Source: a bacterium
Lineage (GTDB): Bacteria; RBG-13-61-14; DATKZS01
Direction of reading: 5' to 3'
DNA length: 64,000 bases
Assembly (NCBI GenBank): GCA_963674965.2
Contig: CAXXFL010000003.1
Location: 352,001-416,000, forward strand
How positions within the stretch are numbered: position 1 is the stretch's first letter; each line of letters begins with the position of its first letter. Below are positions 17,331 through 56,240 of this stretch, piece after piece. A program made the translations under genes and the position numbers. Under the pieces are notes generated by a model. The model ran no database searches. It saw nothing but the letters and a program-made list of their open reading frames with translations, and was not told where the DNA came from.

Positions 17331-18278
17331 ATGGCGGCGCCTAAAAAAATGAAAATAAGCCAACTCGAGGAAATCACCCGAACGCCAAGGACGACCATAC
17401 ATTACTATATCAGGGAAGGACTCCTCACCCGGCCCGACAAAACCGGCAAAACCATGGCCTATTACGACTCCTCCCACGTCAGAAGACTCGAGCTTATAAG
17501 GAAAATCCAAAAGGACTATACGAGCCGGAAGAACAAGTCCTATATGCCCATCTCCCTCTTAAAGGAAAAGCTCGAGGAGGAAACGAGGAAAATCTCGGAG
17601 TACGGCGAGTTCATCTCCGGCGCGGCCGGGGAGGGGACCGGCCCAAAGCGCTCGCGCCGCATGGAGATCATCGAGGCCGCCTTCCGGCTGTACTCGGAAA
17701 AGGGCTATTACTCGACCAACGTTCGGGACATAGCCCGGGAGGCCGGCATCTCGCCCTCCGCCTTTTACATTTACTTTCCCGACAAGCGCGAGCTGTTCGG
17801 AGAGGTGATAGACTTCGTGATCGCGGGCATATCCTCGGACCTCCGCCATGCCCTCGAGGAGGAGGACGAGATGCGGCGGCCCGTGGTTTTCCTCAAGGTC
17901 TTCCGCGACAACTACCCCAAGATGGGCGAGATACTCAGCCAGCTCCGGGCCGGCGTGGCCCTGGACGACCGGTGGGCACGGGACAAGCTGAACAAGGTCT
18001 ACTGGGACATGACCAAGGTCATGGCCGGGGAGGTCAAGAACGCGGCCGACGCCGGCCTCACCCGCGAGACCGACCCCGAGCTTTTGGCCTTCTTCATCGT
18101 GGGCATGGCCGAGATCGTCATCAACCTGACCTCCCTTTACGACAAGTACTCCTACGAGAGGCTCGCCCTCTTCGCCTCCGACCTCTACGTCAACGGCGTC
18201 GCCCCCCGCGACGACCGGAGCCGCGCCTTCTACAAGAAACTCATCGAGGAGATAGTCAAGGCCCTGCCCGAGAGGTGA
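17331..18278 (+). CDS. MerR-TetR fusion transcriptional regulator
   Basis: N-terminal MKISQLEEITRTPRTTIHYYIREGLL (MerR HTH); internal EIIEAAFRLYSEKGY...RDIAREAGISPSAFYIYF (TetR HTH). Confidence 0.85.
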   Translation: MAAPKKMKISQLEEITRTPRTTIHYYIREGLLTRPDKTGKTMAYYDSSHVRRLELIRKIQKDYTSRKNKSYMPISLLKEKLEEETRKISEYGEFISGAAGEGTGPKRSRRMEIIEAAFRLYSEKGYYSTNVRDIAREAGISPSAFYIYFPDKRELFGEVIDFVIAGISSDLRHALEEEDEMRRPVVFLKVFRDNYPKMGEILSQLRAGVALDDRWARDKLNKVYWDMTKVMAGEVKNAADAGLTRETDPELLAFFIVGMAEIVINLTSLYDKYSYERLALFASDLYVNGVAPRDDRSRAFYKKLIEEIVKALPER

Positions 18279-18400
18279 CCACCTTGTCCCGGGTAGCCCC
18301 GTCATGCATTTTCGCAAAACGCATGAGCCATAACCCCGCGATCTATACTCGCCCCCCAAAAGCCTGGCCCAAAACTTGAAGAAAAGCGAGTTAAGTATAA

Positions 18401-18430
18401 TGTCCCCAGAACCCCTGTCCCCAGAACCCC
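18401..18430 (+). repeat. 15-bp tandem direct repeat (TGTCCCCAGAACCCC x2)
   Basis: Read directly; ends at the breakpoint of the 563-bp duplication. Confidence 0.95.
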
Positions 18431-18679
18431 CTTGCCGAACCGGACGTCGCGGTAAATTCGGAATATGGACTTGTCCCGCCTGGGGTCGGCCACCACCCCT
18501 TGCGAGATTTTCTTAAGACGCTCGCCCATGGCCGCCACGAAGGCCCGCGCCGGCTCGAGCACCTCCTGCTCGTAGTCGCCTTTCCTCTCCTCGAACCAGG
18601 CCTTGTCGTTGTTTTTCGCCAGCTCGGATAAAAAGCTCACCGTCTCCCTGGGAAAACCGTCGAAACCGCCTTTCGTCAT
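18430..18679 (-). pseudogene. 5' fragment of the DUF2461 gene (duplicate of the start of 41020..41721)
   Basis: MTKGGFDGFPRE...YRDVRFGK identical to the 41020 ORF, then runs into the tandem repeat. Confidence 0.9.
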
Positions 18680-18775
18680 TTAAGCCTCCTTAAAACGCCG
18701 GCGCTGAAGTCGGAATAGCCGCGCATAAAGATTATAGACGGCTCGCGGCCGGTTGGCGACGGTCATGGAGAAAAA

Positions 18776-18992
18776 TCACCAGGGGTGTTCCACTTCATGG
18801 GCCTTAAGTTGTTGAATGAACATTTCGTTCAACTCGCTTTGTTTGGCGAAAGCCTCCATGGCCTCCTTCACGTAACCTGGTGGACCGATGGCGGAGCACC
18901 GGTAATAGTCGGCTTTAGAATACAGACCGTAATATCGATAGGTTAGAATTTGGAGCTTGATCGCTTTTGGAAAATCTTCATTTTCCACTAAT
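18776..18992 (-). pseudogene. 3' fragment of the lipoprotein gene (duplicate of the end of 39988..40923)
   Basis: LVENEDFPKAIK...HEVEHPW identical to the C-terminus of the 39988 ORF. Confidence 0.9.
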
Positions 18993-19196
18993 TTTTTCTT
19001 TGTTACGTTTTTTTTCAATGTCAAAAGCGTTTTTACCTTGGTAGTCGCAAATCTTCGGATCTGCGCCGTTCTCTAATAGCATTTTTACCATCTCAACCTG
19101 GCCCCTTGTAACAGCGCTATGCAGTGGCGTACTCCCCTGATCGTCTTGAGCGCGTGGGCGGCCAGGATTTTGAGTTTTGCTTTTCTCCCTATCCAT
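18993..19196 (-). pseudogene. Ankyrin-repeat gene fragment, AT-rich
   Basis: AQDDQGSTPLHSAVTRGQVEMVKMLLENGADPKICDYQGKNAFD = one ankyrin repeat plus the start of another; differs from the ankyrin gene at 27358. Confidence 0.7.
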
Positions 19197-19248: not shown

Positions 19249-20055
19249 TTACAGCCCCGAGATGAATTCCCTCATGACCTCAAAGTAATCTTTCTTATTG
19301 AAGGCCTGGACGTCGTTATGACCTCCCACCGGGAAGATATGCAGCCGGGTCTTGGCCGGGTCTCCGTAGGACGCCAGGAGTTTTCCGTTTTCCACCGGGA
19401 CTATATCGTCGAAGGGCGCGTGCATGATCAGGATGGGACCGCCAAAGGCCTTGAGCTTTGACTCCTGATCGAAAGCCTCTTGCAGGTCCCTTTTCAGGAC
19501 GTCCACCTCGACGTCGAACCTCTCCAAAATGGACGCCATCTTGTCGATCCACAGGTCGAACCTGGCAATGCCGCTCTCGATGACCAGGGCCCTGGCTCCT
19601 CCACCCAGGTCCGAGGCCAACTCGGCCGCGGCCAAAGACCCGAGCGACCTGCCCATGATGATTATCCGGTCGGGCGGGACCCCTATGCTTTCGACGAGAA
19701 ACTTCCAAGCCGCCCGGCAGTCCTCGAGCAGTCTGGGCAGGTTGGGTCTTCCCGTGGACAGGCCGTACCCCCGGTAATCGACCACCAGCAGGTTGGCCCC
19801 CAGGGCCTCGACGCTCTTATGGAAGTCATACAGGTAATCGGTCATCACCTCCCCGTTGCCGTGAAAAAAGATAACCGCCGGCGCCTTCTCGAGGGGATGA
19901 TACCAGTAGGCGCCCAGCTTGTCGTCCTTGACCGGTATGCTCACTATCTCTCCGCCGGGGATATCCGGGACGTCCGCCTCCGTCAGTGGAGTGGGGTAGA
20001 AAAGCACTTGCGTTAAAAGTGGATGATCGAGAGTGCGCCTTATGTCTTTTTCCAT
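19249..20055 (-). CDS. Alpha/beta hydrolase (ABHD13/BEM46-like)
   Basis: FFHGNGE, DYRGYG, GRSLG nucleophile elbow, DDIVP, GGHND. Confidence 0.9.
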   Translation of the reverse strand: MEKDIRRTLDHPLLTQVLFYPTPLTEADVPDIPGGEIVSIPVKDDKLGAYWYHPLEKAPAVIFFHGNGEVMTDYLYDFHKSVEALGANLLVVDYRGYGLSTGRPNLPRLLEDCRAAWKFLVESIGVPPDRIIIMGRSLGSLAAAELASDLGGGARALVIESGIARFDLWIDKMASILERFDVEVDVLKRDLQEAFDQESKLKAFGGPILIMHAPFDDIVPVENGKLLASYGDPAKTRLHIFPVGGHNDVQAFNKKDYFEVMREFISGL

Positions 20056-20101: not shown

Positions 20102-21871
20102 TCATCTTATTCTTGCACGCTCCGATTCCCATTTCATCTTTTGCTCGGTGGTGACCGACTTCTCGATGGCTTTGTCGAGATATTCCGCCGCCCTCTTCCG
20201 GTCTCCCGGCCCGCGGGCGTGGACCAACCCCAGTCTTCCCAATACCTCGGGGTTGTCGGGGTCGTAGGCCAGGGCCGACTCGAGGACCCTTACCGCCTCG
20301 CCGCCTCCCGAGCGGCCGGCCTCCCCGCTCTCGACCAGGAGGTCGGCCAAGTTGATGGCCGGCGAAAGGGAACCCGGACTCGCGGCCAGGGCCCTTCGAT
20401 AATAATCCATGGCCTTGTCCCAATCGCCTTTTTTATAGGACAGGTTGCCCAGGTTGTTCAAGGCCTCGGCCGAGGCGGGATCGATCTCGAGCGCTCTCTT
20501 GTAACAAGCCTCGGCCTCGGCGAGCCTTCCGAATGCCGCGTACTCCATGCCCAGATTGACCTGGACCGCGCTCGAGGCCGGGGCCTTGGACATGGCGTCG
20601 CGCCACAGGGCAAGGCCGCTTGAATAGTCGGCCGCCCTCGATACGGTCAGGACGGAATAAAGAACGACCACCGTGAGCGCCAGGGCCATGGATAAGGTTT
20701 TCTTCTTCCCCGCAAGCCCATTGACCATCGCCGCCGCGGGCCAGGCGACGGCCAGGACGGACAGGTAAATCCTGTTCTCGTTGATCGGGACCACGAGCGG
20801 AACGACCGTGCTGGTAGGCGCGAGATAAAGCATGGAAAAAAGAAGAGCGAAAGAAGACTCTTTGGATATTCGGCGAACCGAAAAGGATATGGCGACCAGA
20901 GCGGCAATCCCGATCGGCTTTAGGAGCCATAGAAAGGTGAAGGCCCCCGCGGCCCCCGGCGCCTCATGCTCGATGGACGGGTTGACGGGCAGGACCAGAA
21001 GTTTCGCGTAGGTCCAGAAGGCGCCGACCTGCATGGCCAGGTAGTGGCCGACGGTCCAAGGCCGCTGGGGCGGGAACAAGGTGGGGGCCGAATGGACCCG
21101 GCGATAGACGAGATATACAAGGAAAGCGAGGGTGAGAACGGCAAGAACCGCGGCCAGCTTCTTGCCGCCTTGTCCCGAGACCAAGCCCCGGAAAGAGGAA
21201 ACCTTATCCCCCGCGCCGTTTTCCTTATTGAAGATGAAGGCCCAGAGGATAATGGCCGCGGGCAGGGTCGAGATCGAGGCCTTCACGAAGAGCCCGGCCA
21301 GGAAAAGCACCGAGATGGACGCGGCCTTTATGGTCGCCGATCCAAAGGGACCCCGCGAGTCCTCGTCCTCATTCCAAAGGGACGCGAATAAAATAAGGCC
21401 CGCCAGGTAAAAAGTGGACGAAAGCAAAGTCGAGCGGCACGTCACGTATCCCACCTGAATGGACTGGAGGGGATGGACCAGGAACAACAAAGCCGCCAGA
21501 GGGGCGAGGCTTTTCAGACTCCTCGTTTTCATGGTCAGGAAAAGGACCAGCAGGGCGTTGATGGAGTGGATGACCAGGTTGGTGGCCCTGAAGGCGGATG
21601 GTTTTCCACCCGACCTTTGCCAGTCCAGGGCGTAGGTCCAGGTCAACAGGGGACGGGTCATGGCGCCGTTAAACCGCGAGGCGCTCTCGGGATTTTGAAA
21701 ATAATAAACCGGGTTCAGGGTGGTCTTGATACTCGGGTTGTCTCGTATGGTATGGATATCGTCGTAAATAAAGGGAGAGTCCAGATATCCCCGAAAGACG
21801 ACCCAGGAAGCGGCGATGGTCGCAACGACCGCCAGGACGAAAAGCCATTTGTTTTTATCAAGGCCAGGCAT
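20102..21871 (-). CDS. TMTC-like GT-C membrane glycosyltransferase with C-terminal TPRs
   Basis: Real gene is the last 589 aa of the 1920-aa ORF (start MPGLDKNK); FIYDDIHTIRDNP, RPL, HPLQ, ENRIY, LWRDA motifs, many TM helices, TPRs. Confidence 0.8.
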   Translation of the reverse strand: MPGLDKNKWLFVLAVVATIAASWVVFRGYLDSPFIYDDIHTIRDNPSIKTTLNPVYYFQNPESASRFNGAMTRPLLTWTYALDWQRSGGKPSAFRATNLVIHSINALLVLFLTMKTRSLKSLAPLAALLFLVHPLQSIQVGYVTCRSTLLSSTFYLAGLILFASLWNEDEDSRGPFGSATIKAASISVLFLAGLFVKASISTLPAAIILWAFIFNKENGAGDKVSSFRGLVSGQGGKKLAAVLAVLTLAFLVYLVYRRVHSAPTLFPPQRPWTVGHYLAMQVGAFWTYAKLLVLPVNPSIEHEAPGAAGAFTFLWLLKPIGIAALVAISFSVRRISKESSFALLFSMLYLAPTSTVVPLVVPINENRIYLSVLAVAWPAAAMVNGLAGKKKTLSMALALTVVVLYSVLTVSRAADYSSGLALWRDAMSKAPASSAVQVNLGMEYAAFGRLAEAEACYKRALEIDPASAEALNNLGNLSYKKGDWDKAMDYYRRALAASPGSLSPAINLADLLVESGEAGRSGGGEAVRVLESALAYDPDNPEVLGRLGLVHARGPGDRKRAAEYLDKAIEKSVTTEQKMKWESERARIR

Positions 21872-22006
21872 CTCAAAGATATGGCGATTATACCAATAGG
21901 CGCGGAAAATTAAACGCCGGCCCCATGAACTGGCGCGGAGGCGGTGGATAAGCGATAATGCCTTATCGAACCCGATCGTCACGCGCACCGAAAACGGGAG
22001 GACACA

Positions 22007-24406
22007 ATGCGAGGAAAAACGCGCCTTAAATACATTCTCGCCGCCATGGCCTGTCTGGCTTTGCTTTCTTTCACGGCGGCCGGACTGGAAAAGCAAAGGC
22101 CCGGGATTAACGCCTGGAACCAGCTTAATTCCCTTGTTCGGATCGGGACGGTCAACATGGTGATGGACTTGTCTTCCCGGGACATGGTCGATCCCGCGAT
22201 CGACGACGGCGCCACTTTCTCCTATTTTGCCCGGCCCAGCTTCCAGATAGGGATCAGGGGAGAGCAGCAAGCCACCCAGGTGATCGACGGCCACCTCTGG
22301 ACCGGGGCCGCCGAGTGGTTCGCCATCGCCGGCCCGGACGACGAGGTGGTGAATAAAAGAATCTGGACCCTGCGCGACGGATACCTTCCACAAGTGGGCT
22401 ACTCGATCATAAAGGACGGCGTAAGGTACAAGGTGGCCTTCTTCCAGTTCCGGCTTAATGACGACCCGGGGTCCGACGCGGTCGACTTCGCCCGAGTCGA
22501 GGCGGAAAATATAAGTGATGAAAGCCGCGAGGCGGCCTTTGGCGGCGGCTTCATGTATGGCCCGACCGACCACCGCTGCCAGAACATAAGACGGATGAAA
22601 TTCAATCCGTTCTGGTCCTACGAGATGACGGACAAGGCGGCGGTCCGGGACGGCAAACTGATATACGCGTGGCAAGACCGGCCCGACTCGGTCCTGGCCA
22701 AACCGGGCAAGGAGTACGAGGGGCCCTTTACGGGCGCGGGGCGGACGACCCCCCTTTGCATGGCCAGGTATAAAAGGACCCTCGCTCCCGGCGAGAGCGC
22801 CAGGGCCGACTTCGTTATTCCCCAACTTCCCATGGACCCCGCAAAAGTTGACGAACTCACGGCGGCCGACTATGACGAGCGGCTCGAGGCCATGGCCGAT
22901 TACTGGAACGCGTGGCTCGAGGGCGGTACGTCCATTTCCGTTTCCGAGAAAAAGATACGCGACGCCTGCCGGGCCTACGTGATCCACGCCCTGATGAGCC
23001 AGAACGTCCTTGGCGAGGACGAGGTGGAGCAACACGTGAACCGCCTTCAATATAATCGCTTCTGGCTCCGCGACTCGGCTTTTTTCGTGAGCATGTACGA
23101 GAAATGGGGCCAACCCGAGGTCGCCCGCGCCCTTTGCCGGAGGTGTTACGGGTCTCAACTGGAGGACGGCAACTTCCTTAGCAATCGCGGCCAGCTTGAC
23201 GGCTGGGGCCAGTCCATGTGGGCCTTCGGTACTCACGTCCGGTATACGGGCGACGTGGAGTTCGCCCAGGAAGCCGCTCCCCGGGTCGAGCGCGCCGCGG
23301 CCTGGCTCGAGTCGGCCCTGGCCAGGGACGCCTGGGGCGTGATGCCGCCCACCGACGCCCTCGACAACGAGACCATCTACGGCCGCTACACGGGCCACAA
23401 CTTCTGGGCCATAATCGGGCTCGAGGCCGCGGCCGACGTCATGGAGGCGGCGGGCCGGCCCGAGAAGGCCGCCGAGTATCGGGAGCTGCGGGAGGAATAC
23501 CGGGCCCGGCTGATCGATCTTCTCCGGGCCATCATGGAGGAAAGGGGCGGGGTCATCACTCCGGGCCTTGACGTTAAGGGCGGCACGGACTGGGGCAACC
23601 TCCTCGCCGTGTACCCCGGCCGGGTCCTGGACCCGTGGGACCCGCTGGTGACGGACACCTTCGACAAGGTTCGCGAGGAGCGTATGCAAGAGGGTATCTC
23701 CATGTGGCATCAGTCGCTCCATCTGTATATTACCGAGCGCGTGGCCCAGACGGCCCTTGTCCGGAACGAGCAGGAGAAGGCGGTGGGAGACTTTTACGGC
23801 ATGCTCCTCCACACCGGGTCGTGCCATGAGGGGTTCGAGTGGACCGTCTACCCCTGGGCCGGACGGGACTATTGCATGGACCCCTTGTCCGACCACCACT
23901 GCAACTTCCCTCCCCACGGATGGTACGCGGCGGACATGAACATCCTTTTCCGGAACATGCTGATCAGGGAGGACGAGGGCAAGGTCGTGCTTTTCTCGGC
24001 CCTCTCCCCCGCCTGGGCCCGGCCTGGAGACGCGGTCGAGGTAAGGGACGCGCCGGCCTATGTCCGGGACGAGGCGGGAAGGCCCCTGCCGCTGACCATA
24101 TCCTTCAAGGCCGTCTTTGCCGATCGCTCCGTCCATATCGAGTACGGCGCCGAGGCCATGAAGGACGGGGCAAGCGGTCCCGCGGATAATGCCCTGATAA
24201 TGAGGCGTCCCTATTTCCTCGGTCTCGAGTCGGCCTCCCTGGACGGGAGGGCGATGGAAGTTGGAGACGACCTTTGGCTGCCCCTGGGCAAACACGAGCT
24301 CGAGATTACCTTTCAGCGAAAGCCCGCGGAGCAAAAGAGCCACGAGGCCTCGGTGAAATGGTACAAGGACGAATACCGGAGGCGATGGGAAAGCTCCGGC
24401 AAATAA
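22007..24406 (+). CDS. Secreted (alpha/alpha)6-barrel glycoside hydrolase-like protein
   Basis: Signal peptide; YNRFWLRDSAF, GQLDGWGQ, YTGD, DNE motifs typical of six-hairpin glycosidases; family not assignable by eye. Confidence 0.6.
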   Translation: MRGKTRLKYILAAMACLALLSFTAAGLEKQRPGINAWNQLNSLVRIGTVNMVMDLSSRDMVDPAIDDGATFSYFARPSFQIGIRGEQQATQVIDGHLWTGAAEWFAIAGPDDEVVNKRIWTLRDGYLPQVGYSIIKDGVRYKVAFFQFRLNDDPGSDAVDFARVEAENISDESREAAFGGGFMYGPTDHRCQNIRRMKFNPFWSYEMTDKAAVRDGKLIYAWQDRPDSVLAKPGKEYEGPFTGAGRTTPLCMARYKRTLAPGESARADFVIPQLPMDPAKVDELTAADYDERLEAMADYWNAWLEGGTSISVSEKKIRDACRAYVIHALMSQNVLGEDEVEQHVNRLQYNRFWLRDSAFFVSMYEKWGQPEVARALCRRCYGSQLEDGNFLSNRGQLDGWGQSMWAFGTHVRYTGDVEFAQEAAPRVERAAAWLESALARDAWGVMPPTDALDNETIYGRYTGHNFWAIIGLEAAADVMEAAGRPEKAAEYRELREEYRARLIDLLRAIMEERGGVITPGLDVKGGTDWGNLLAVYPGRVLDPWDPLVTDTFDKVREERMQEGISMWHQSLHLYITERVAQTALVRNEQEKAVGDFYGMLLHTGSCHEGFEWTVYPWAGRDYCMDPLSDHHCNFPPHGWYAADMNILFRNMLIREDEGKVVLFSALSPAWARPGDAVEVRDAPAYVRDEAGRPLPLTISFKAVFADRSVHIEYGAEAMKDGASGPADNALIMRRPYFLGLESASLDGRAMEVGDDLWLPLGKHELEITFQRKPAEQKSHEASVKWYKDEYRRRWESSGK

Positions 24407-24472
24407 GACGGTCTTATGGGTATTTTGAAAGGGCCCGGACTTAGTGATAAGTTCAGACCCGGAGTATAATTC

Positions 24473-25876
24473 ATGCGGATTTCCCTCATATTTCCCCGAG
24501 ACAAGAAGCAGGTCCACGGCATGTGGCCGCCCCTGGGAATCATCGCGCTTGGAACGCTTCTTCGCGACCTGGGACATGACGTCCGCTGTCACGACACCAG
24601 CTTCGACCCTTCGCCCGAGCGCGTCATAGGCGAGATCGGTCGCTTCAAGCCCGAGGTCGTGGGCGTGTCGTGCCTGACCGACTTCGTGCCCCGGGCCCGG
24701 GTCTTCGCCAAGGCGGCGCGCCAAGGAGGGGCCGTCACCGTGGCGGGCGGACCACACCCGACCATCGACCCGGCCGGACTTCTGAGCGGCGACGACGGAT
24801 TCGACTACGCCGTCATGGGAGAGGGCGAAAAGACCCTGCCCGCGCTGGTCGATATCATCTCCGGCGGGTCCTCCGCGGCCGGGCTCAAGGGCGTGGCCTT
24901 CCGGGAGGGGGGCGAGATAATCGACAACGGACCGCCCGAGCCCATCGAGGACCTGGACGCCTTCCCCATGGCCGACCGCGACCTCCTGGACGTGAACGGA
25001 CAATACCTGCGGGCGCGGGCCATCAACATGCACGCCAGCCGCGGCTGTCCCTTCCGCTGCAAGTTCTGCCAGCCCACCTTGAAGAGGATGTTCGGCGCCA
25101 GGGTCCGGTTCAACGGGCCGGACAGGGTGGCCGAGGAGATCGAGACCTACGGAAAGAAGTACTCGGTCAACGACTTCTTCTTCCACGACGACACCTTCAC
25201 CTTCAAGAAAAGCTGGCTCGGGGCGCTGGTGGAAAAGCTGGGCGAGCGGGACCTCGTCAAGGACTACCGCTACGTGGTGAACTCGAGGGTTGACACCTTC
25301 GACGAGGAAAGGGCCCAGATGCTCAAGGCCATGGGCGTGTATTACGTCCTCTTCGGCATCGAGACGGGGGCCCAGTCCATCCTGGACTCGATCGACAAGG
25401 GCACGACCATCGAGCAGGCGAGGGAGGCCTTCCGGATTTGCCGGAAATACGGTTTCAGGACCCACGCCTATATCCTGCTCGGCTCTCCAAGCGAGACTCG
25501 GGAAACCCTGCGCGCCACCGAGAACTTCGTCAAGGAGCTTAAACCCAACACGGTCCACGTCTCCATCTACACCCCCCTCCTCGGCACTTACCTGGCCGAC
25601 GAGTGCGAGAGGGAGGGGAAGATCACCCTGAAGGGCTATTCCGATTTCGACTATTACCTCAAGAAGACCAGCTCCGGTGACCCTCCCATCAAGATACCCG
25701 GCCTGACCTACCAGGACCTGCTCGACTCGAGGGCGAGGATACTGGGGGACAGGAAATGGATGGTCATGGCCGACAACGCCAGGGAGTTGATCCATGACCT
25801 CACTCGAGACCCCAGCCTGGACAAGCTTATCTTCAGGTACCAGTTCTACAAGCGGATGAAGCATTACTTCGGCTGA
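24473..25876 (+). CDS. Cobalamin-binding radical SAM protein
   Basis: PPLGI, GGPHPT, GEGE (B12 domain); SRGCPFRCKFC; DDTF; GIETG. Confidence 0.9.
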   Translation: MRISLIFPRDKKQVHGMWPPLGIIALGTLLRDLGHDVRCHDTSFDPSPERVIGEIGRFKPEVVGVSCLTDFVPRARVFAKAARQGGAVTVAGGPHPTIDPAGLLSGDDGFDYAVMGEGEKTLPALVDIISGGSSAAGLKGVAFREGGEIIDNGPPEPIEDLDAFPMADRDLLDVNGQYLRARAINMHASRGCPFRCKFCQPTLKRMFGARVRFNGPDRVAEEIETYGKKYSVNDFFFHDDTFTFKKSWLGALVEKLGERDLVKDYRYVVNSRVDTFDEERAQMLKAMGVYYVLFGIETGAQSILDSIDKGTTIEQAREAFRICRKYGFRTHAYILLGSPSETRETLRATENFVKELKPNTVHVSIYTPLLGTYLADECEREGKITLKGYSDFDYYLKKTSSGDPPIKIPGLTYQDLLDSRARILGDRKWMVMADNARELIHDLTRDPSLDKLIFRYQFYKRMKHYFG

Positions 25877-39648: not shown

Positions 39649-39987
39649 GCCCTCCTCCCTTCAGCGCCCGCGAAAAACGAGCGTCAAGCGCATTATACCA
39701 ACTCAGGCGCGCCTCTCATATATTAAGAACAAGAAATCCGGACGCGCCCGAAACCGCCCCTACTCAAGCATAGGCCAGGGGCAAGTTTATTTTTTGTCTA
39801 TCCTGCTTCTTGGCCTAATTCTATTTTCAGTCCCACCGGCCATTTACCGCCAGGACGGAATCGCCGATCATCGTATCTCTCTCGCTTGGGAGGATTTTCC
39901 TTGGGTCGCCGATTATTGTTATACTCCTCGTATGCAGAATAAATTAAAGAAGGTTTTCTATAATATTCTTTGCCCGGACGAACGGAT

Positions 39988-40923
39988 ATGAAAAGAGTAT
40001 TAGCCTTATGTCTCCTATCTCTTATTTCAATGTCCGCCTGCTCCGGGCCGAAAAAGAATTATGACGCTTATTATGACTTTCTTTCGGTGGAGGCCGAGGA
40101 GAAAAGGTTGGCCGCGCTGGGGGTCGTTTTCACCGAGGAGGGGGACGCCGCCGACGGGTATATGCCCTATTTGAACGGCCAGGCCCAAATAACGCAGATG
40201 AACTGGTTTGCCAATTATTATGGCGACGCGGAAAAACAGGCCGTCGCCGTTAACCTGGCAACCGAGGACCTTGATATTCTTGTGCAGGAAAGCCGGAAAA
40301 AGGAATGCAATATATGGGGAAAGAACTTCTTCCCCAATCAGTCCAAGACCCACTTTCAAGATTCCCCTGGGCCTTCATCAGAATTCCGCCGCCTTATTGC
40401 TTTTCTAATGACCAGAGGAGAGTACCTTTTTAACAATGGAGAATATGAAAAGGGAAAAGAGCAATTTTTCGCCGTCTATAGAATTTTGCATCACTTTGAA
40501 AAGGAGCCCTCTTACTACTATTTTCAATATGGATTTGAGACGAAAATATTCTATTCTGAACGATTTATCCGTCTTCTGGAGCAGTTCGGATTAATAAGAG
40601 AAGCCGAGCTATGGAAAAAATACTTGAAGACCTCTTATAGAAGAGTTCCCTTTTTCAATGAAATCTTTCAGGAATCCGCCTCTTTTGACGAGGATGAATT
40701 GTTTCTATTAGTGGAAAATGAAGATTTTCCAAAAGCGATCAAGCTCCAAATTCTAACCTATCGATATTACGGTCTGTATTCTAAAGCCGACTATTACCGG
40801 TGCTCCGCCATCGGTCCACCAGGTTACGTGAAGGAGGCCATGGAGGCTTTCGCCAAACAAAGCGAGTTGAACGAAATGTTCATTCAACAACTTAAGGCCC
40901 ATGAAGTGGAACACCCCTGGTGA
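39988..40923 (+). CDS. Hypothetical lipoprotein (helical, lower GC)
   Basis: Start ATG 39988, lipobox MSAC; no recognised motif. Confidence 0.7.
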   Translation: MKRVLALCLLSLISMSACSGPKKNYDAYYDFLSVEAEEKRLAALGVVFTEEGDAADGYMPYLNGQAQITQMNWFANYYGDAEKQAVAVNLATEDLDILVQESRKKECNIWGKNFFPNQSKTHFQDSPGPSSEFRRLIAFLMTRGEYLFNNGEYEKGKEQFFAVYRILHHFEKEPSYYYFQYGFETKIFYSERFIRLLEQFGLIREAELWKKYLKTSYRRVPFFNEIFQESASFDEDELFLLVENEDFPKAIKLQILTYRYYGLYSKADYYRCSAIGPPGYVKEAMEAFAKQSELNEMFIQQLKAHEVEHPW

Positions 40924-41269
40924 TTTTTCTCCATGACCGTCGCCAACCGGCCGCGAGCCGTCTATAATCTTTATGCGCGGCTATTCCGACTTCAGCGCCG
41001 GCGTTTTAAGGAGGCTTAAATGACGAAAGGCGGTTTCGACGGTTTTCCCAGGGAGACGGTGAGCTTTTTATCCGAGCTGGCGAAAAACAACGACAAGGCC
41101 TGGTTCGAGGAGAGGAAAGGCGACTACGAGCAGGAGGTGCTCGAGCCGGCGCGGGCCTTCGTGGCGGCCATGGGCGAGCGTCTTAAGAAAATCTCGCAAG
41201 GGGTGGTGGCCGACCCCAGGCGGGACAAGTCCATATTCCGAATTTACCGCGACGTCCGGTTCGGCAAGG
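40707..41269 (+). repeat. Source copy of the 563-bp inverted duplication
   Basis: Matches the reverse complement of 18430..18992; both overlapped genes are intact here. Confidence 0.95.
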
Positions 41270-41721
41270 ACAAGCGTCCCTACAAGACCCACCTGGGCAT
41301 ATTCTTCTGGGAGGGCAAGGCCAAGAAGATGGAGTGCCCGGGCTTTTACTTCCACCTCGAGCCCCCGAATTTGACGCTGGGCGCGGGCCTTTACATGTTC
41401 TCGCCCGCCCAGCTCTCGGCCTATCGCGAGTCCGCCGTGCATCCACGCCGCGGGCGGGAACTGGCCAAAGCCGCGGCGGCCGTCCGCAAAAGCGGTCCCT
41501 ATGAAATAGGCGTCCAGCGCTATAAAAGGGTCCCCCGCGGCTACGACAAGGACCACGAGAACGCCGAGTTTCTGACCTTCGGCGGCCTCACGGCCATGGT
41601 GGAGGCGCCCATCCCCAAGGAGCTTTACTCGGAAGCCGTTCTGGACTATTGTTTTGCCAGATGGAAACACATGGCCCCCATCCATAAATGGCTTTTGGCC
41701 ATGAACGAAAGAGTGAAGTGA
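41020..41721 (+). CDS. DUF2461 family protein
   Basis: FLSELAKNNDKAWF, FRIYRDVRFGKDKRPYK, KRVPRGY. Confidence 0.85.
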   Translation: MTKGGFDGFPRETVSFLSELAKNNDKAWFEERKGDYEQEVLEPARAFVAAMGERLKKISQGVVADPRRDKSIFRIYRDVRFGKDKRPYKTHLGIFFWEGKAKKMECPGFYFHLEPPNLTLGAGLYMFSPAQLSAYRESAVHPRRGRELAKAAAAVRKSGPYEIGVQRYKRVPRGYDKDHENAEFLTFGGLTAMVEAPIPKELYSEAVLDYCFARWKHMAPIHKWLLAMNERVK

Positions 41722-49243: not shown

Positions 49244-49443
49244 TCTATATGCAACTTCTTATATGTTGGCACAAAGAGGTGACAGAAATTATTTGACGGC
49301 GAAGGTAGCAAGAATGGACGTGATAGAAGATATTAGAAATAATCCATTATTAAGTGAAGTCCATTCTCGTCAAAGAAAGAAGTTGAAAGTTTTTTTCAAG
49401 GATCTTGCCGGTTGCCCACATGAGCATTACCTCGCTCTAAATA

Positions 49444-51207
49444 GTTCCAGTTGCGTAACTAGAAAAAGCCAATAAAAACAATGTGCTGTAAGCATTTTTC
49501 GCTTCCCTTTTTGGTCTTGATATGATACAATAACTCCTTGAAAAATCAAGGATTGACTTGCCGGGATGCTGTGAAGGGGGCGAAAAATGCGACCGAAAAT
49601 TAAAATGCAAATGACCATTGAAGACCACGAATTTTTGAAAGCGGGCCATCTTTTCAAACAAGACACTGAGCTTGAGAAGATGAGCATAGCGCTCGACGAG
49701 GCCAAGGAAATTCTGGAAGCTGTTGCCGATGATCTCCAAAGCGGACTCAAGGAGACCGGCGCCGAGGGGATGAGCGTCGAGCAGGTCCTTAGGAGCGCGG
49801 TCATCTATCAACTCAAGTGTTATTCCTACCGGGAACTCGGCGACCGCCTCGGTTCCGATTACAATTTCCGCAAGTTCACCAGGTTCTTCGGGCGGGACAT
49901 TCCCCATTTCAGCAGCCTGGAGCGGGCGATAAAACGCATCCGCCCCGAGACCTGGGAGCGGATCAACGAAATGCTCGTGGCCCTGGCCATTAAAAAAAAA
50001 GTAGAAGACGGCGAGGCGGTCCGCGCTGACACCGCGGTGGCCGAGGCCAACATCCACTATCCGACCGACGCTTCGCTTCTTTTTGACAGCATCCGTGTAT
50101 TGGACCGGTTGATGAAAGGAGCGCGGAAGGAGCTGCCGGGTCTCGGGTTCGAATATCATGACCGGACTCGGCGGGCCAAGAAGCGCGCTTACCAGATCGC
50201 CATGGGCAAAGGCAAAGGGATCGAGAAGAAACGGGCGGTCTGGTACCGGGACCTTCTCAAGGTTTCGGCGGAAATCTTGGCCATGGCCCGCTCGGCGCGG
50301 GAGGCGCTGGACGAGGCCCTTAAAGGCGGAGAGCTTTATTTCAGCGATGCGGGCCTGGCAACCATGATCAAGAGCGAACTCGATCATTACCTGCCGCTTT
50401 CTGAGCAGTGCGTCGAGCAGTGCGAGCGGCGGGTTATAAAAGGCGAGAAGGTTCCCGCGCAAGAGAAGGTGGTTTCCGTTTTCGAGCCGCACGTTGATAT
50501 CATCCGGAGAGGCAAGACCATGAGCCCGACCGAGTTCGGTCACAAGGTGATGGCGGCGACGGGAAGGTCGGGGATTGTGCTTCAATATAAAGTGTGCGAG
50601 GGCAACCCTTCCGACGCCGACCTTTTCGAGGACATTTTGCAAAAACACGTCCGCCTGTTCGGCAAGGCTCCACGCGAGTTTACCGGCGACCGCCGCTTCT
50701 ATCATGAGGACAATGAGAAGCTTGCGACCGAAGGTCCTTATTATATCGAGCGCCTGGCCATTCCCAAGCCCGGCAAAAGGAGTTCGGAGCGGATCGAGCA
50801 CGAGCGTCAGCGCTGGTTCAAGAAGCTTCTTCGCTTCCGGGCCGGGATCGAGGGCGGCCTTTCCGCCCTTCTTCGCGGCTTCGGTCTGAGCCGATGCCTG
50901 TGGAGAGGTTTCGAGAGCTTCAAGTCCTGGGTGGGTCTTTCGTTCTTTGCCTGGAACCTTCGAAAACTCGCGCTGCTGACTTAGCCGCCGCCGGGCGCGC
51001 CCCTGTGGGGGCAATGAAAAACGGAAATGAAAAACAGCAAAAGGAGAGGTGTTTTTTGAAAGGATAGAAAAGGGCCGGCTCAGGCATTCAACTCGCCTGA
51101 AAGCGTTAAAATCTTTTCCGTCCTTTATAGACGCCCTGAAAATCTGCATGTCCATATCCTCTCCGCACCGCATAATGAAAGCCATTAAGCAGTTGTGCAA
51201 CAGAAAC
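49444..51207 (+). mobile_element. Insertion sequence (IS5/ISNCY-type), copy 1, intact, 1764 bp
   Basis: Imperfect terminal inverted repeats GTTCCAGTTGCGTAAC / GTTGTGCAACAGAAAC; flanking TAAATA direct repeats (49438-49443, 51208-51213). Confidence 0.9.
49587..50984 (+). CDS. DDE transposase (IS5/ISNCY-type)
   Basis: RADTAVAEANIHYPTD, TEFGHKV, GDRRF, RAGIEGGLS motifs. Confidence 0.9.
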   Translation: MRPKIKMQMTIEDHEFLKAGHLFKQDTELEKMSIALDEAKEILEAVADDLQSGLKETGAEGMSVEQVLRSAVIYQLKCYSYRELGDRLGSDYNFRKFTRFFGRDIPHFSSLERAIKRIRPETWERINEMLVALAIKKKVEDGEAVRADTAVAEANIHYPTDASLLFDSIRVLDRLMKGARKELPGLGFEYHDRTRRAKKRAYQIAMGKGKGIEKKRAVWYRDLLKVSAEILAMARSAREALDEALKGGELYFSDAGLATMIKSELDHYLPLSEQCVEQCERRVIKGEKVPAQEKVVSVFEPHVDIIRRGKTMSPTEFGHKVMAATGRSGIVLQYKVCEGNPSDADLFEDILQKHVRLFGKAPREFTGDRRFYHEDNEKLATEGPYYIERLAIPKPGKRSSERIEHERQRWFKKLLRFRAGIEGGLSALLRGFGLSRCLWRGFESFKSWVGLSFFAWNLRKLALLT

Positions 51208-52503
51208 TAAATAAATATATAGAACACAGGCCTGAATGCTTTTACTCAGAAGATATTTTTCACAAATTTCTATACTGGCTAAATAAAAGAGATAATAATT
51301 CACGAGGGCCTCTACAAGAGTATTTTAAAGAGTTCTCTACAGAATTAAATCAGGCATTCCATCACTTAAATGAGGTAAATCGATATGACTGGCATGATGG
51401 CGTCTTGAAATTAGATGAATATGAAAAAATCCGATTTATCGATCAAAAAATACACCCCGCATACCTCCGACTAGTAGAAGCGGTTCTTGCTCCTTTCCTT
51501 CATGTAGTGGCACATTTTTATAGATTTGATCGTGGGAAAGGCACACAAGGATTGGACTTATACAATATTATGGATAACGTGAAAAAAACCGAAATTTCTG
51601 ATGCCGCAGCGCCCTATCTTCATAAAGTTCGGAATGGAATAGGCCACGGGAAGATAACTTACTTACAGAATGAAATACTCTATAAAGATAGAAAAGGAAA
51701 TAGTGAGAAATATAATGATTCAGAAATAATCAGAACATTTGATAACCTTCTTGATACATGTAATTCCATCGCGTTGGCATTATGGATATTTTTTCTTTCA
51801 AAACAATCAGATTGCTATGCTTTGCCGCGACAATTGCTACTGGAAGAGCTTAGGCAGGAAACTAAAACACCGTGGTGGGAGGTCGTTGGTTGCATACCTT
51901 CCGAAAAATCTAGGCAACATCAATTAAATGTATATGTGAAAAACAAAACGCGAGATTATGATAAAGTTCGATATAGTGCCTTTCAAACGGGACTTTTGGC
52001 TGAACTGTTCTCATCTGGTTATGAAAGATACTTTATTTCTATTCTTTCTGATTATTCCTTGCCCGGCTGGGCTGCTTTCAATGGTGACAAGCTGAAGGAA
52101 TTAAGGCTTCATGAAAATACGCGTTTTGAAGACTACAAATGTGTTTTAGAGAATAATGACGTCTATTTTTACCCTCGTGTGAAGGCACCAAAACTGTTTC
52201 ACCATTTAAATAGTTCCAGTTGCGTAACTAGAAAAAGCCAATAAAAACAATGTGCTGTAAGCATTTTTCGCTTCCCTTTTTGGTCTTGATATGATACAAT
52301 AACTCCTTGAAAAATCAAGGATTGACTTGCCGGGATGCTGTGAAGGGGGCGAAAAATGCGACCGAAAATTAAAATGCAAATGACCATTGAAGACCACGAA
52401 TTTTTGAAAGCGGGCCATCTTTTCAAACAAGACACTGAGCTTGAGAAGATGAGCATAGCGCTCCGGAATGTGTCAAGCAAAATGAGACACGCCTTTCCTG
52501 AAT

Positions 52504-53520
52504 TTAGTGTGGCAAACTGTTTATTTCCTCCGGTTTCGCCGGTGGGTTGATCCACGCTTTGCCGGGCAACTCCGGCGCCGTCGGCGGTCTTTTCACGAAG
52601 CGCTCCGGTTTTTTTTCATAGGCGTGGTCGAGCGTTTTTTGCCTGGCGGCCACGATCTCGCTCGCCATTCCGTAATGGACCATCTCGGGCGTCATCAGGC
52701 CGATCCCGGTGTGCCGATGCTCGCGGTTGTACCAATCGAAAAACTTCACGCAAAAGGCCCTGGCGTCCTCGATGGAGCCGAACCGGCTCGGGAACTCGGG
52801 CCGGTACTTCATGGTCTTGAACTGGCTTTCCGAGTAGGGGTTGTCGTCGGACACGTGGGGCCGCGAGTGGCTCTTGGTCACGCCCAGGTCGGCCATCAAG
52901 AAGGCCACCGGCTTTGATTTCATCGAACTCCCCCGGTCGGCGTGGATGGTGAGTTGTCCCGGCTCGATCCCCTGTTTTCGGATGCTGTCCCCGATCAGGC
53001 GGCGGGCCAGCTCCGCGCTCTCGCGTCCGGCGATCATCCATCCCACCACGCAGCGGCTGAAGATGTCCATGATCACGTAGAGTTGGTAGCAGGTCCATTT
53101 GGCCGGTCCCTTGAGCTTGGTGACGTCCCAGGACCAGACCTGGTTGGGGGCCTCGGCCAGCAACTCGGGTTTTTTGTATCGGGGACGCCGAAGCTGGTTG
53201 CGCCGCTCCCTGACTTCCTTTTCCGAGTCGAGGACGCGGTACATGGTGCGGACCGAGCACAGCCATGTCCCCTCGTCCAGGAGCGTTGCCCAGACCTCGC
53301 GGGGGGCCTTGTCGGCAAAGCGCTCGGAGTGGAGTCCGTCCAGCACCCGGCGCCGCTCGTCCTCGCTCAACGACCTTGCCGGCTTGGCCGCGCGCCTCGG
53401 CGGCGGAGGCCCGAAGGGAATTTTAGCGCGACGATTAAACGTTGCTCGCGACAGGCCCAGGGCCTCGCAGGCGGCCTTGGCGCCGACCCGGGGAGCGGCC
53501 GTGCTTGCCGATTCCATCAT
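52504..53520 (-). CDS. IS3 transposase OrfB (integrase core)
   Basis: PNQVWSWD, DIFSR, HADRG, DNPYSESQFKTMK, WYNREHRH. Confidence 0.9.
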   Translation of the reverse strand: MMESASTAAPRVGAKAACEALGLSRATFNRRAKIPFGPPPPRRAAKPARSLSEDERRRVLDGLHSERFADKAPREVWATLLDEGTWLCSVRTMYRVLDSEKEVRERRNQLRRPRYKKPELLAEAPNQVWSWDVTKLKGPAKWTCYQLYVIMDIFSRCVVGWMIAGRESAELARRLIGDSIRKQGIEPGQLTIHADRGSSMKSKPVAFLMADLGVTKSHSRPHVSDDNPYSESQFKTMKYRPEFPSRFGSIEDARAFCVKFFDWYNREHRHTGIGLMTPEMVHYGMASEIVAARQKTLDHAYEKKPERFVKRPPTAPELPGKAWINPPAKPEEINSLPH

Positions 53521-54056
53521 TCGCTCTCTTCGCCGGGCGGCTTGGCCAGGGGTATCCCCAGCAGATCGGCAACTTTTTTTTGGAAGTCGATTATCATCTC
53601 GGCCTGTTCGAGCCGCTTTTGGAGCTTCCCGTTCTCGCGCTCGAGGCGGGCCACTTCATCGGCCAGCGGGTTTTTGGCCTTGGGCTTGCGGCCCCGCTTT
53701 ACGGGCGAAAGCGCTTTCAAGGCCCCCTCGTCCCGCTGCTTGCGCCAGGCCGTCAGGTGCGACGAATAAAGGCCCTCCCGGCGCAGCAGGGCGCCGACCT
53801 CGCCATGCCCCGAGCAGGCGTCGGCCTTCCCGAGGATTGCGAGCTTGTAAGCCGCGGTGAAGCGCCGCCGGGCGGGCTTTTCCGGGACCTCCGGCTCGGG
53901 AAGAATGATCGGCGCCCCCACCCGCTCGGGCCGCTTGGCAGGAGTGTCCTCCGGCTCGGCCGTCCCGGTTGGGGAGACTCCGGTCGCCCTACGGGCTCCC
54001 TCCGTCTCCCCAACAATCCCTGCCTTCTTCCTGTCTTCATCCATCTCTCTATACAT
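53517..54056 (-). CDS. IS3 transposase OrfA (HTH + leucine zipper); start uncertain
   Basis: RRRFTAAYKLAIL, LRREGLYSSHLTAWRKQ, EVARLERENGKL...FQKKV. Confidence 0.85.
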   Translation of the reverse strand: MYREMDEDRKKAGIVGETEGARRATGVSPTGTAEPEDTPAKRPERVGAPIILPEPEVPEKPARRRFTAAYKLAILGKADACSGHGEVGALLRREGLYSSHLTAWRKQRDEGALKALSPVKRGRKPKAKNPLADEVARLERENGKLQKRLEQAEMIIDFQKKVADLLGIPLAKPPGEESE

Positions 54057-56240
54057 CCTAATACCTCCCCCGCCCTACAGTAATTTAACATAGGGGAAGT
54101 GTCTCATCTACGTTGGCACAGAGGGCTCGACGAGGCCAAGGAAATTCTGGAAGCTGTTGCCGATGATCTCCAAAGCGGACTCAAGGAGACCGGCGCCGAG
54201 GGGATGAGCGTCGAGCAGGTCCTTAGGAGCGCGGTCATCTATCAACTCAAGTGTTATTCCTACCGGGAACTCGGCGACCGCCTCGGTTCCGATTACAATT
54301 TCCGCAAGTTCACCAGGTTCTTCGGGCGGGACATTCCCCATTTCAGCAGCCTGGAGCGGGCGATAAAACGCATCCGCCCCGAGACCTGGGAGCGGATCAA
54401 CGAAATGCTCGTGGCCCTGGCCATTAAAAAAAAAGTAGAAGACGGCGAGGCGGTCCGCGCTGACACCGCGGTGGCCGAGGCCAACATCCACTATCCGACC
54501 GACGCTTCGCTTCTTTTTGACAGCATCCGTGTATTGGACCGGTTGATGAAAGGAGCGCGGAAGGAGCTGCCGGGTCTCGGGTTCGAATATCATGACCGGA
54601 CTCGGCGGGCCAAGAAGCGCGCTTACCAGATCGCCATGGGCAAAGGCAAAGGGATCGAGAAGAAACGGGCGGTCTGGTACCGGGACCTTCTCAAGGTTTC
54701 GGCGGAAATCTTGGCCATGGCCCGCTCGGCGCGGGAGGCGCTGGACGAGGCCCTTAAAGGCGGAGAGCTTTATTTCAGCGATGCGGGCCTGGCAACCATG
54801 ATCAAGAGCGAACTCGATCATTACCTGCCGCTTTCTGAGCAGTGCGTCGAGCAGTGCGAGCGGCGGGTTATAAAAGGCGAGAAGGTTCCCGCGCAAGAGA
54901 AGGTGGTTTCCGTTTTCGAGCCGCACGTTGATATCATCCGGAGAGGCAAGACCATGAGCCCGACCGAGTTCGGTCACAAGGTGATGGCGGCGACGGGAAG
55001 GTCGGGGATTGTGCTTCAATATAAAGTGTGCGAGGGCAACCCTTCCGACGCCGACCTTTTCGAGGACATTTTGCAAAAACACGTCCGCCTGTTCGGCAAG
55101 GCTCCACGCGAGTTTACCGGCGACCGCCGCTTCTATCATGAGGACAATGAGAAGCTTGCGACCGAAGGTCCTTATTATATCGAGCGCCTGGCCATTCCCA
55201 AGCCCGGCAAAAGGAGTTCGGAGCGGATCGAGCACGAGCGTCAGCGCTGGTTCAAGAAGCTTCTTCGCTTCCGGGCCGGGATCGAGGGCGGCCTTTCCGC
55301 CCTTCTTCGCGGCTTCGGTCTGAGCCGATGCCTGTGGAGAGGTTTCGAGAGCTTCAAGTCCTGGGTGGGTCTTTCGTTCTTTGCCTGGAACCTTCGAAAA
55401 CTCGCGCTGCTGACTTAGCCGCCGCCGGGCGCGCCCCTGTGGGGGCAATGAAAAACGGAAATGAAAAACAGCAAAAGGAGAGGTGTTTTTTGAAAGGATA
55501 GAAAAGGGCCGGCTCAGGCATTCAACTCGCCTGAAAGCGTTAAAATCTTTTCCGTCCTTTATGGACGCCCTGAAAATCTGCATGTCCATATCCTCTCCGC
55601 ACCGCATAATGAAAGCCATTAAGCAGTTGTGCAACAGAAACTAAATAATAGGTATATGGCATTTAGACTGTTCTTGCCAATCGCGAGAGAAGATTTCAAG
55701 ACTCAACTTAATCTTCCCAATATCTATGTCCGAAATTCCGTAATTCACCGCAATGGTTGGCGTTGCGTACTAAATGCAAGTGTATTTTACAACGGCCCAG
55801 ATGACCAAGAAGCAATAAGAAACTCGTGTAGAAGAATCATTCATCAGCCCCTTTTGAACGCGAGATGCCGTTTATCTATTACAGATATATCTCGATATCT
55901 TCCCCTAGGCTATGCTCGCGTGGCGGTATTTCGGAAAAATTATAGAAGACGCCGATTATTATGCTTTGGTCTTGGTGACGATTTGATTTGTACTGTACAG
56001 GTAAAAAATATCTCACGCATTTCCAGCCCAGATATTATTGGATCAACAATCGAAAAATATGGAAAGTATAGAATCGCATGGAACCGGGCTTGGTTACAAA
56101 ATAAGGAAACAGAAGTCTCAGGATCGTGAAAATATCGAGATAAAAGATATAAGTTTAAAGGCACAAAACCCGACTCTGACTGAACATTAAGGGAGAACGC
56201 CTAAAGCTAAATGAACTATATATCTATCTCTTTTATATGA

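Follow-up and report, generated by a model that had tools for sequence, protein, structure and literature searches.

The window analysed here, a stretch of bacterial DNA of 64 kb, contains at ~18353-18430 (~78 nt) the decayed, 5'-truncated right end of a TIRYT/TIRtron element without a transposase gene. This end terminates in a 15-nt tandem duplication, the usual stutter of such ends. An inverted 563-nt copy of host DNA starts exactly at the relic end, which hints at break-triggered copying of host DNA. The repeat, the duplicated segment of 563 bp, the base at their junction and the reading frame from 18339 had been reported by a first-pass annotation, and all of them are present where it placed them. 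The features are compiled in Table 1.

TIRYT/TIRtron elements are a little-studied bacterial family related to REP-associated tyrosine transposases (RAYTs); each consists of a Y1 (HUH, single-tyrosine) transposase gene between terminal inverted repeats (TIRs). They are described in the accessible part of Di Nocera, De Gregorio and Rocco (2013, PMC3733652) as genes flanked by TIRs that share GGGGWSAS; the TIR copies occur singly, in pairs or in groups. The consulted sections of Quentin et al. (2018, PMC6006769) define subclass 2.1 of TnpAY1 by NHVH, W[EQ], YIELNP and an SS motif, a median length of 238 aa and the lack of REPs, and equate it with RAYT Group 1 of Bertels and with TIRYT of Di Nocera et al. 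In the same sections subclass 2.1 ranks second in size among the Y1 subclasses and occurs in 14.9% of the strains counted (Quentin et al., PMC6006769). According to the accessible text of Bertels et al. (2017, PMC5581495), no RAYT group is larger or more widespread than RAYT Group 1, which is somewhat IS-like.

Table 1. Features at the relic end and in its surroundings (positions in the window).
Feature	Position	Strand	Basis or remark
MerR-TetR fusion regulator gene (left neighbour)	17331..18278	+	Pfam MerR_1, TetR_N
Spacer between MerR-TetR stop and relic, 74 nt	18279..18352	+	no similarity to element detected; profile match stops short
Relic: last codons of TIRYT-type Y1 transposase gene, running into subterminal part of right TIR	18357..18398	+	upstream-DNA profile, BLASTP
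Subterminal right-TIR block GAGTTAAGTATAA	18388-18400	+	directly before unit 1
Terminal unit 1: 11-mer core TGTCCCCAGAA and 4-nt tail CCCC	18401..18415	+	sequence; core same as in at least 119 loci
Terminal unit 2: exact tandem copy of unit 1; last base doubles as base 1 of 563-nt copy	18416..18430	+	
G-quadruplex-type motif: four GGGG runs, 3-4-nt loops	18404..18431	-	formed by tandem repeat and CCCC tail
Inverted host-DNA copy: first 250 nt of DUF2461 gene, intergenic region, last 217 nt of lipoprotein ORF	18430..18992	-	
Second gene fragment: ~1.5 ankyrin repeats, out of frame with 563-nt copy	18993..19196	-	Pfam Ank, residues 11-60 of 72-aa ORF
Alpha/beta hydrolase gene (right neighbour)	19249..20055	-	Pfam Hydrolase_4, Abhydrolase_1
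Source copy, within intact gene pair (ORFan lipoprotein and DUF2461)	40707..41269	+	
TIRYT-type end, motif form			AATTAAGTATnG-TGTCCCCAGAA; also given as AATTAAGTATNN-TGTCCCCAGAA

Identity of the relic end

The plus-strand frame from 18339 reads RSILAPQKPGPKLEEKRVKYNVPR, with R at 18339 followed by ...ILAPQKPGPKLEEKRVKYNVPR. It is open only between 18327 and 18452 (42 codons), and no longer frame exists upstream. The first-pass annotation had likened this frame and the motif downstream of it to the C-terminus and the downstream motif of a group of Y1/HUH transposases. This resemblance is real: In four loci of other genomes (L007, L025, L079 and L080), the same motif is located 9-15 nt 3' of the stop codon of a Y1_Tnp ORF of 219-221 aa, and ILAPQKPGPK of the window is identical in eight of ten residues to MLRPQKPGPK of the L025 protein (BLASTP). 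The KPGPK codons of the relic occupy 18360-18374. The comparison with PF01797 that the annotation had suggested yields no match, as Pfam returns no family for the 42-codon frame at E<=10, PF01797 included. This check could not have worked because the model covers the catalytic core and not the tail.

Two DNA profiles built from related loci locate the remnant. The upstream profile, which comprises 200 nt 5' of the core from 10 loci and excludes the core itself, has a single match on both strands of the window, at 18357-18398 (nhmmer, E 5.6e-4). The model positions aligned there include the KPGPK codons and the AATTAAGTAT block. The right-end profile (64 loci) matches at 18383-18413 with an E value of 3.9e-7, and there is no other match of note in the window. 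The family's usual TGA stop, embedded in cTGAATTAAG, corresponds to CGAGTTAAG in the window. A Y1 gene is not found in the 64 kb by tblastn with four family proteins (best E 0.18), in agreement with the earlier statement that the window holds no intact transposase of this type. The matches of both profiles and the alignment of the tail, combined with the lack of a transposase gene, identify ~18353-18430 as a relic right end whose inner side is cut off. Since no inverted partner of this end is present in the window, only one end is left.

On the minus strand, GGGGACAT occurs twice in the window. It agrees with GGGGWSAS in seven of eight positions, and its last base is common to 4 of 64 family ends among the matches listed. 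When folded as DNA (18353-18445, both strands), the relic end yields z values of 0.23 and 0.62 and is not a palindrome. Neither GTAG nor CTAC is found in it. A plasmid collection contains no match to the relic DNA; with the L025 protein as query, it yields 22 records of at most 37% identity, mostly annotated as 'transposase'.

Just 3' of the MerR-TetR gene, an imperfect 11-bp hairpin, TCATGCATTTT-CGC-AAAACGCATGA, is located at 18302-18326 (fold z -2.9); it might serve as an operator, or as a terminator that lacks a T-run. The regulator gene itself (17331-18278) encodes an N-terminal MerR HTH fused to a TetR_N / TetR_C_13 module, which is an unusual architecture with two HTHs.

The same ends in other genomes

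Related loci were collected by a genome scan that covered one genome per species and required two TGTCCCCAGAA cores separated by 0-30 nt. At least 120 stretches matched, compared to ~2 expected by chance according to a hand estimate that assumes uniform base composition (596e9 bases x 2 strands x 31 gaps / 4^22). The sample used here comprises at least 119 loci, all preselected for at least two cores, with long flanks in L001-L080. Among the matches listed are cyanobacteria, Deltaproteobacteria/Thermodesulfobacteriota, Planctomycetota, Gamma- and Alphaproteobacteria, Clostridia, Omnitrophota and Nitrospirae. The consensus of at least 119 core-oriented loci is (G)AATTAAGTAT(T/G)G-TGTCCCCAGAA-(T/C)T(C). 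Among the matches listed, 65 of 128 de-duplicated clusters have TTAAGTA with at most one mismatch in the 14 nt that precede the core, and in 34 of the 128 the end recurs in inverted orientation at a distance of no more than 400 nt, similar to a miniature inverted-repeat element. The TTAAGTA signature is absent from 63 of these 128 listed clusters, some of which are other repeat families. One of them is the actinobacterial hairpin repeat of L003 with the 11-mer within GCGTTCTG...CAGAACGC. Two Pseudonocardiaceae MAGs (L003 4728-4874, L058 6001-6052) contain the 11-mer in a GCGTTCTG-TCCC-CAGAACGC hairpin every 41 nt without TTAAGTA, and the flank shared by both begins 40 nt from the repeat in L058 and 702 nt from it in L003. 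This hairpin repeat is probably a different family caught by the pattern. A literature search with the 11-mer and its reverse complement retrieved, among the matches listed, unrelated eukaryotic papers only, in which the strings look like primers.

The four Y1_Tnp proteins from L007, L025, L079 and L080 end in ...GRMLRPQKPGPKKRHG, ...RTLKPEKPGPKGKLN, ...VRRRKPGPKRADL and ...MLRPKKRGPKKQETES, respectively; tails among the locus proteins include ...LRPQKPGPKKRHG and ...RRRKPGPKRADL as well as ...RPQKPGPK. All four match Pfam Y1_Tnp (PF01797) with E values from 1e-12 to 2.5e-14. Against the NCBIfam model REP_Tyr_transpos (REP-associated tyrosine transposase) they reach 61-80 bits with a cut-off of 80, and three of them are at or below it. 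NHVH, LWQ, YIE(F/L)NP or YVEMNP, and WSSA were recognized by eye in comparison with Table 1 of PMC6006769. A DnaA_C-type HTH is not found in any of the four in Pfam at E<=0.01. Upstream of each of the four genes, inverted left ends of the form TTCTGGGGACAC..TACTTAATT are located, which are often duplicated and fit GGGGWSAS.

In several respects, the related loci correspond to TIRYT/TIRtron elements. They contain a RAYT-like Y1 gene of ~220 aa with NHVH, WQ, YIELNP-type and SS motifs, and their flanks are TIRs, not REP hairpins. These TIRs carry GGGGWSAS in the form of GGGGACAC, GGGGACAG or GGGGACAT, occur singly, in pairs and in clusters, and show a patchy distribution over many phyla. The motifs of subclass 2.1 / RAYT Group 1 are present in the four locus proteins, which are 219-221 aa long as opposed to the median of 238 aa. 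The window, in contrast, contains just ~78 nt of a single end, and the gene is missing. The 11-mer motif belongs to Y1 elements with TIRYT features, so the resemblance noted in the first-pass annotation was sound, but the 'undescribed mechanism' it proposed concerns a family that is already described and fits TIRYT/TIRtron with GGGGWSAS TIRs, as documented in the accessible parts of PMC3733652 and PMC6006769.

Stutter of the ends

The ends of this family are repeated in a characteristic way. The following counts refer to loci preselected for two cores, among the matches listed. Across the 128 clusters, the tandem period most frequently lies between 15 and 18 nt. Every core copy, the last one included, is followed by the same 3 nt in 93 of 127 clusters (the window is one of them), and the tail shared after the core most often measures 3-4 nt. 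A two-part model accounts exactly for 80 of 172 inter-core spacers: Each of these consists of the first 0-9 nt of the final flank, followed by a suffix of the DNA that precedes the first core. When spacers were paired with the flanks of another cluster as a control, on average 6 and at most 13 of them fitted. The upstream part is 1-40 nt long in 68 of the 80 fitting spacers; the other 12 are plain tandem copies like that in the window. The remaining 92 of the 172 do not fit the model exactly. This means that stutter consists of partial terminal re-copies whose outer end is fixed (CAGAA + 3-4 nt) and whose inner start varies, and it affects both element ends.

In the window, the two tandem units of TGTCCCCAGAACCCC at 18401-18415 and 18416-18430 are directly preceded by GTTAAGTATAA. 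No further copy of TGTCCCCAGAACCCC is present on either strand of the 64 kb when up to three mismatches are allowed. Two copies in one window say little alone, since 86 of 100 shuffled windows contain at least two matches to the 15-mer at the same tolerance (<=3 mismatches). The minus strand of the repeat forms the G-quadruplex-type sequence GGGGGTTCTGGGGACAGGGGTTCTGGGG (18404-18431), which is the sole instance of four GGGG runs with loops of at most 7 nt on both strands of the window. Most TIRYT-type family members have TTCC- or CTCC-type tails, with which such a motif would not form.

The minus strand also contains a sigma-70-like site, GGGACA-16 nt-TATACT (18421-18394), which is composed of the outer repeat unit and the subterminal TIR and directed into the element. 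It could be speculated that at the left end the stutter period of 15-18 nt makes a promoter for the transposase gene. A promoter combined with the start of a small RNA was considered for the repeat and rejected: Rfam yields nothing near gathering scores between 17000 and 20500, and a promoter scan finds no plus-strand site at the repeat.

The inverted copy of host DNA at the relic end

The 563 nt from 18430 to 18992 are 100% complementary to 40707-41269 (repeat search), ~22 kb away. The native copy is that at 40.7 kb. Its DUF2461 gene (41020..41721) has full length (profile positions 1-208 of 208, E 7.7e-56), and the adjacent ORF (39970..40923) encodes a 317-aa ORFan lipoprotein with the lipoprotein-like signal MKRVLALCLLSLISMSACSG and without a Pfam family. 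A search of 5.8 billion proteins finds no homologues of this lipoprotein. In the inverted copy, DUF2461 is represented by profile positions 1-70 of 208 only (Pfam), and the truncated gene reads through the repeat as minus-strand ORF 18302..18679. Base 18430 (C) can be assigned to either the second unit or the copy, and the bases just outside both copy ends differ. With this 1-nt ambiguity, the copy joins the relic at CAGAA + 3 or 4 nt, the position at which stutter copies are joined elsewhere. Its far end at 18992 (...CCACTAAT) does not resemble the terminal motif.

The copy is followed by the ankyrin fragment, which is truncated on both sides. Its relatives are generic ankyrin proteins with at most 63% identity, and neither a second copy of the fragment nor one of the junction DNA is present in the window. 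As no source was found, the fragment may simply be old flank. Because the regulator and hydrolase genes are convergent, the whole mosaic lies within a convergent intergenic gap of 970 nt.

Such an arrangement might have arisen by insertion and subsequent decay. A TIRYT element would have entered a pre-existing larger inverted duplicate of the lipoprotein-DUF2461 pair at the position that matches 41269/41270. Later, its transposase gene would have been deleted along with its left end and the remainder of the DUF2461 copy, and the coincidence of the two boundaries would result from the interruption. At least one deletion did occur, since the inner side of the relic is truncated near 18353. In addition, Y1 elements do insert into genes, and a convergent intergenic gap is a place where junk can persist. 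However, at least three events are required (duplication with a break at 40707, insertion and deletion), yet the 563 nt are still 100% identical. Left of the relic, nothing resembles the rest of DUF2461, and the out-of-frame, doubly truncated ankyrin fragment is left unexplained. We regard this course of events as unlikely.

The 100% identity and the inverted orientation are also typical of chimeras, and the copy might be a chimeric join from assembly or amplification that is absent from the organism. This would require two chimeric joins 563 nt apart, one of which would have to coincide to the base with a biologically defined element end. Furthermore, the same assembly resolves two near-identical IS copies of 1.78 kb, which argues for good read support. 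An artefact is a distinctly improbable source of the copy.

Closest to the idea in the first-pass annotation, an element that joins copies of host DNA to its terminal motif, is a transposition that overran the right end: An element in DUF2461 with its right end at 41269 would have moved 563 nt of its flank and then been excised precisely from the donor. Read-through capture is known for other HUH elements, e.g. IS91/ISCR and Helitrons, and the orientation fits, as the right end is joined to 41269 in reverse complement. That IS608-type Y1 elements excise precisely is established according to the consulted sections of PMC6006769. Against this origin, which we consider quite improbable, speaks the far end of the copy at 18992, which is unlike the terminal motif. 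Neither an element nor a footprint is found at 41269/41270, and both the stutter arrays and the ankyrin fragment are left unexplained. Transposition of subclass 2.1 is not found in the accessible parts of PMC6006769, PMC3733652 and PMC5581495 either.

The first-pass annotation had gone further and suggested a gene-fragment capture system, whose function would be to join host-DNA copies to the terminal motif. Of this suggestion, the relic end at the junction of the copy is retained; the system itself is not, because the junction is a single one and 80 other ends display no convincing captured copy within ~6 kb. For this comparison, the 300 nt beyond each end were searched against ~6 kb on each side in their own locus, a weak test in so far as the window's own source at 22 kb would escape this range. 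The matches obtained are element repeats or tandem arrays in L034 and L069 and, in L080, a 58-nt repeat of unexplained nature. It would be compatible with a dedicated system that the copy boundary falls exactly on the element terminus and that two gene fragments stand in series beside it. The same applies to a proposal, meanwhile partly withdrawn, that subclass 2.1 enzymes drive the diversification of prochlorosin genes; in the accessible version, the authors note that there is evidence neither for nor against it (bioRxiv 10.1101/2020.03.09.984088). The frames of the fragments are broken and do not encode a coherent product, the relic lacks a gene of its own, and nothing suggests selection for the arrangement. 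A dedicated system is very improbable.

A possible mechanism

The explanation that we favour, and that we hold slightly more probable than its opposite, comprises a TIRYT relic end, its stutter, a break at the boundary and ectopic templated copying as a by-product. A Y1 enzyme encoded elsewhere in the genome would act in trans and recurrently break or nick the boundary between element and flank. As the window has no Y1 gene (best E 0.18), this nicking enzyme is hypothetical here. A stall at the G-quadruplex may add to breakage in this copy only. The break would be repaired by templated synthesis with template switching, and short re-copies of the end would appear as stutter. In the window, the boundary would have received the inverted 563-nt copy from 22 kb away and then the ankyrin fragment, as 'filler DNA' from ectopic templates. 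Both pieces could stem from a single complex repair event and would be a by-product of end breakage, not the work of a dedicated capture machine. Judging from the sequences, repeated breakage at one boundary and short templated re-synthesis may be behind the stutter.

This explanation agrees with the start of the 563-nt copy at the family's fixed end position (CAGAA + 3 or 4 nt), with the intact source of the copy and with the second, unrelated gene fragment that follows it. It is also consistent with the formation of the window's only GGGG x4 motif by the tandem repeat. On the other hand, the junction is the only one of its kind, and the 80 other ends lack a convincing host copy nearby. The 92 of 172 spacers outside the exact two-part model and the 63 of 128 clusters devoid of TTAAGTA (both among the matches listed) count against it, too, as does the ankyrin fragment, which has no found source and may be old flank. 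In addition, the accessible parts of PMC6006769 and PMC3733652 contain no mapped cleavage site for subclass 2.1.

As a tentative generalization, which we consider less probable than the explanation of the window, breaks at TIRYT boundaries and template-switching repair would have a small outcome, the stutter across phyla, and a rare large outcome, the insertion of host DNA copied from afar, in the window 563 nt and the ankyrin fragment. That the junction coincides exactly with the family's fixed end keeps the reading as a break-induced templated insertion alive, with a minority chance.

Neither activity nor cleavage site nor role of the TIRYT / subclass 2.1 enzymes is found in the accessible parts of PMC6006769, PMC3733652 and PMC5581495. 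The near-invariant extended consensus of the ends together with the fixed-end stutter predicts a cut position. If the generalization holds, it would give the first sequence-level handle on the cut site of these uncharacterised enzymes, and these Y1 elements would be one origin of templated filler insertions and of shuffled gene fragments in bacteria. If the 563-nt copy arose at the cut, TIRYT would join Helitrons and ISCRs as HUH movers of host-gene pieces, by a repair route. If not, the window would contain an ordinary relic transposon end beside an unrelated rearrangement.

Relation to other mobile elements

Rolling-circle HUH elements (IS91/ISCR, Helitrons) are known to capture flanks, and filler DNA is known from excision and break-repair junctions. 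Similar to the window, these systems display host copies joined to one end, serial fragments and short microhomology. They differ in that they employ two-tyrosine Rep enzymes or DDE transposases; furthermore, only a single instance is present here. An IS91/ISCR/Helitron-type origin was rejected: The associated enzyme is a single-domain Y1_Tnp, and no other HUH gene is found among the 24 window ORFs scanned. In the accessible text of PMC3733652, PMC6006769 and PMC5581495, flank capture or filler DNA at Y1 TIRYT ends is not documented, and neither the extended AATTAAGTATnG-TGTCCCCAGAA consensus nor the fixed-outer-end stutter nor host DNA at the end is described.

The RAYT/REP/REPIN systems (TnpAREP of E. 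coli, REPINs of Pseudomonas) share a related Y1 catalytic core, and the short inverted pairs of the present family resemble REPINs. Identity with RAYT/REP (REPtron) was rejected, because the end is not a hairpin (z 0.23 and 0.62) and lacks a GTAG head, and the family scores are at or below the cut-off in three of the four proteins. The IS200/IS605 elements (IS608, ISDra2) also encode an HUH single-tyrosine enzyme, and their single-strand cutting and rejoining at fixed sites with precise excision serves as template for the interpretation given above. Their own features are subterminal hairpins, no TIR, a Y---Q motif and often tnpB. The inverted ends and the Y---NP motif of the related elements exclude them from IS200/IS605; the transpos_IS200 model gives a score for only one of the four proteins, 16.7 bits, which is below its cut-off of 55. 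GGGG... and TGT... termini are typical of Tn3-type and Tn7/Tn402-type ends. Such ends were discarded, since the window contains no transposase of these types and the motif belongs to Y1 elements.

Additional observations

Two related loci show unusual arrangements. In L016 (4171-6014), two adjacent units of 920 nt are 91.5% identical, and the second ends 7 nt from a TGTCCCCAGAA core. These units may represent a tandem duplication of a larger, non-autonomous member. The gammaproteobacterial chromosome OZ252091.1 (L051/L052/L069) carries dense arrays of ends in both orientations, with up to five cores per array and several arrays within 1.3 kb.

In the window, the minus-strand ORF 20102-25864 encodes a protein of 1920 aa, for which Pfam identifies TPR repeats only. 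These are located near the C-terminus (residues ~1750-1900), and the first 1700 residues have no assigned family. Two ORFs have a low GC content: 39970-40923 (~46% in 40001-41000) and 51195-52244, for which no Pfam family is found (~38% in 51001-52000). The 1.78-kb IS with a 465-aa transposase (DDE_Tnp_1 / DUF772) is present in two near-identical copies, 49438-51215 and 52207-52463 + 54119-55815. The second copy is interrupted by an IS3-family element of 1.66 kb (52464-54118), which encodes OrfB (rve, 52504..53520) and OrfA (HTH_Tnp_1, 53517..54056) and is flanked on both sides by the same 10 bases of the host IS.
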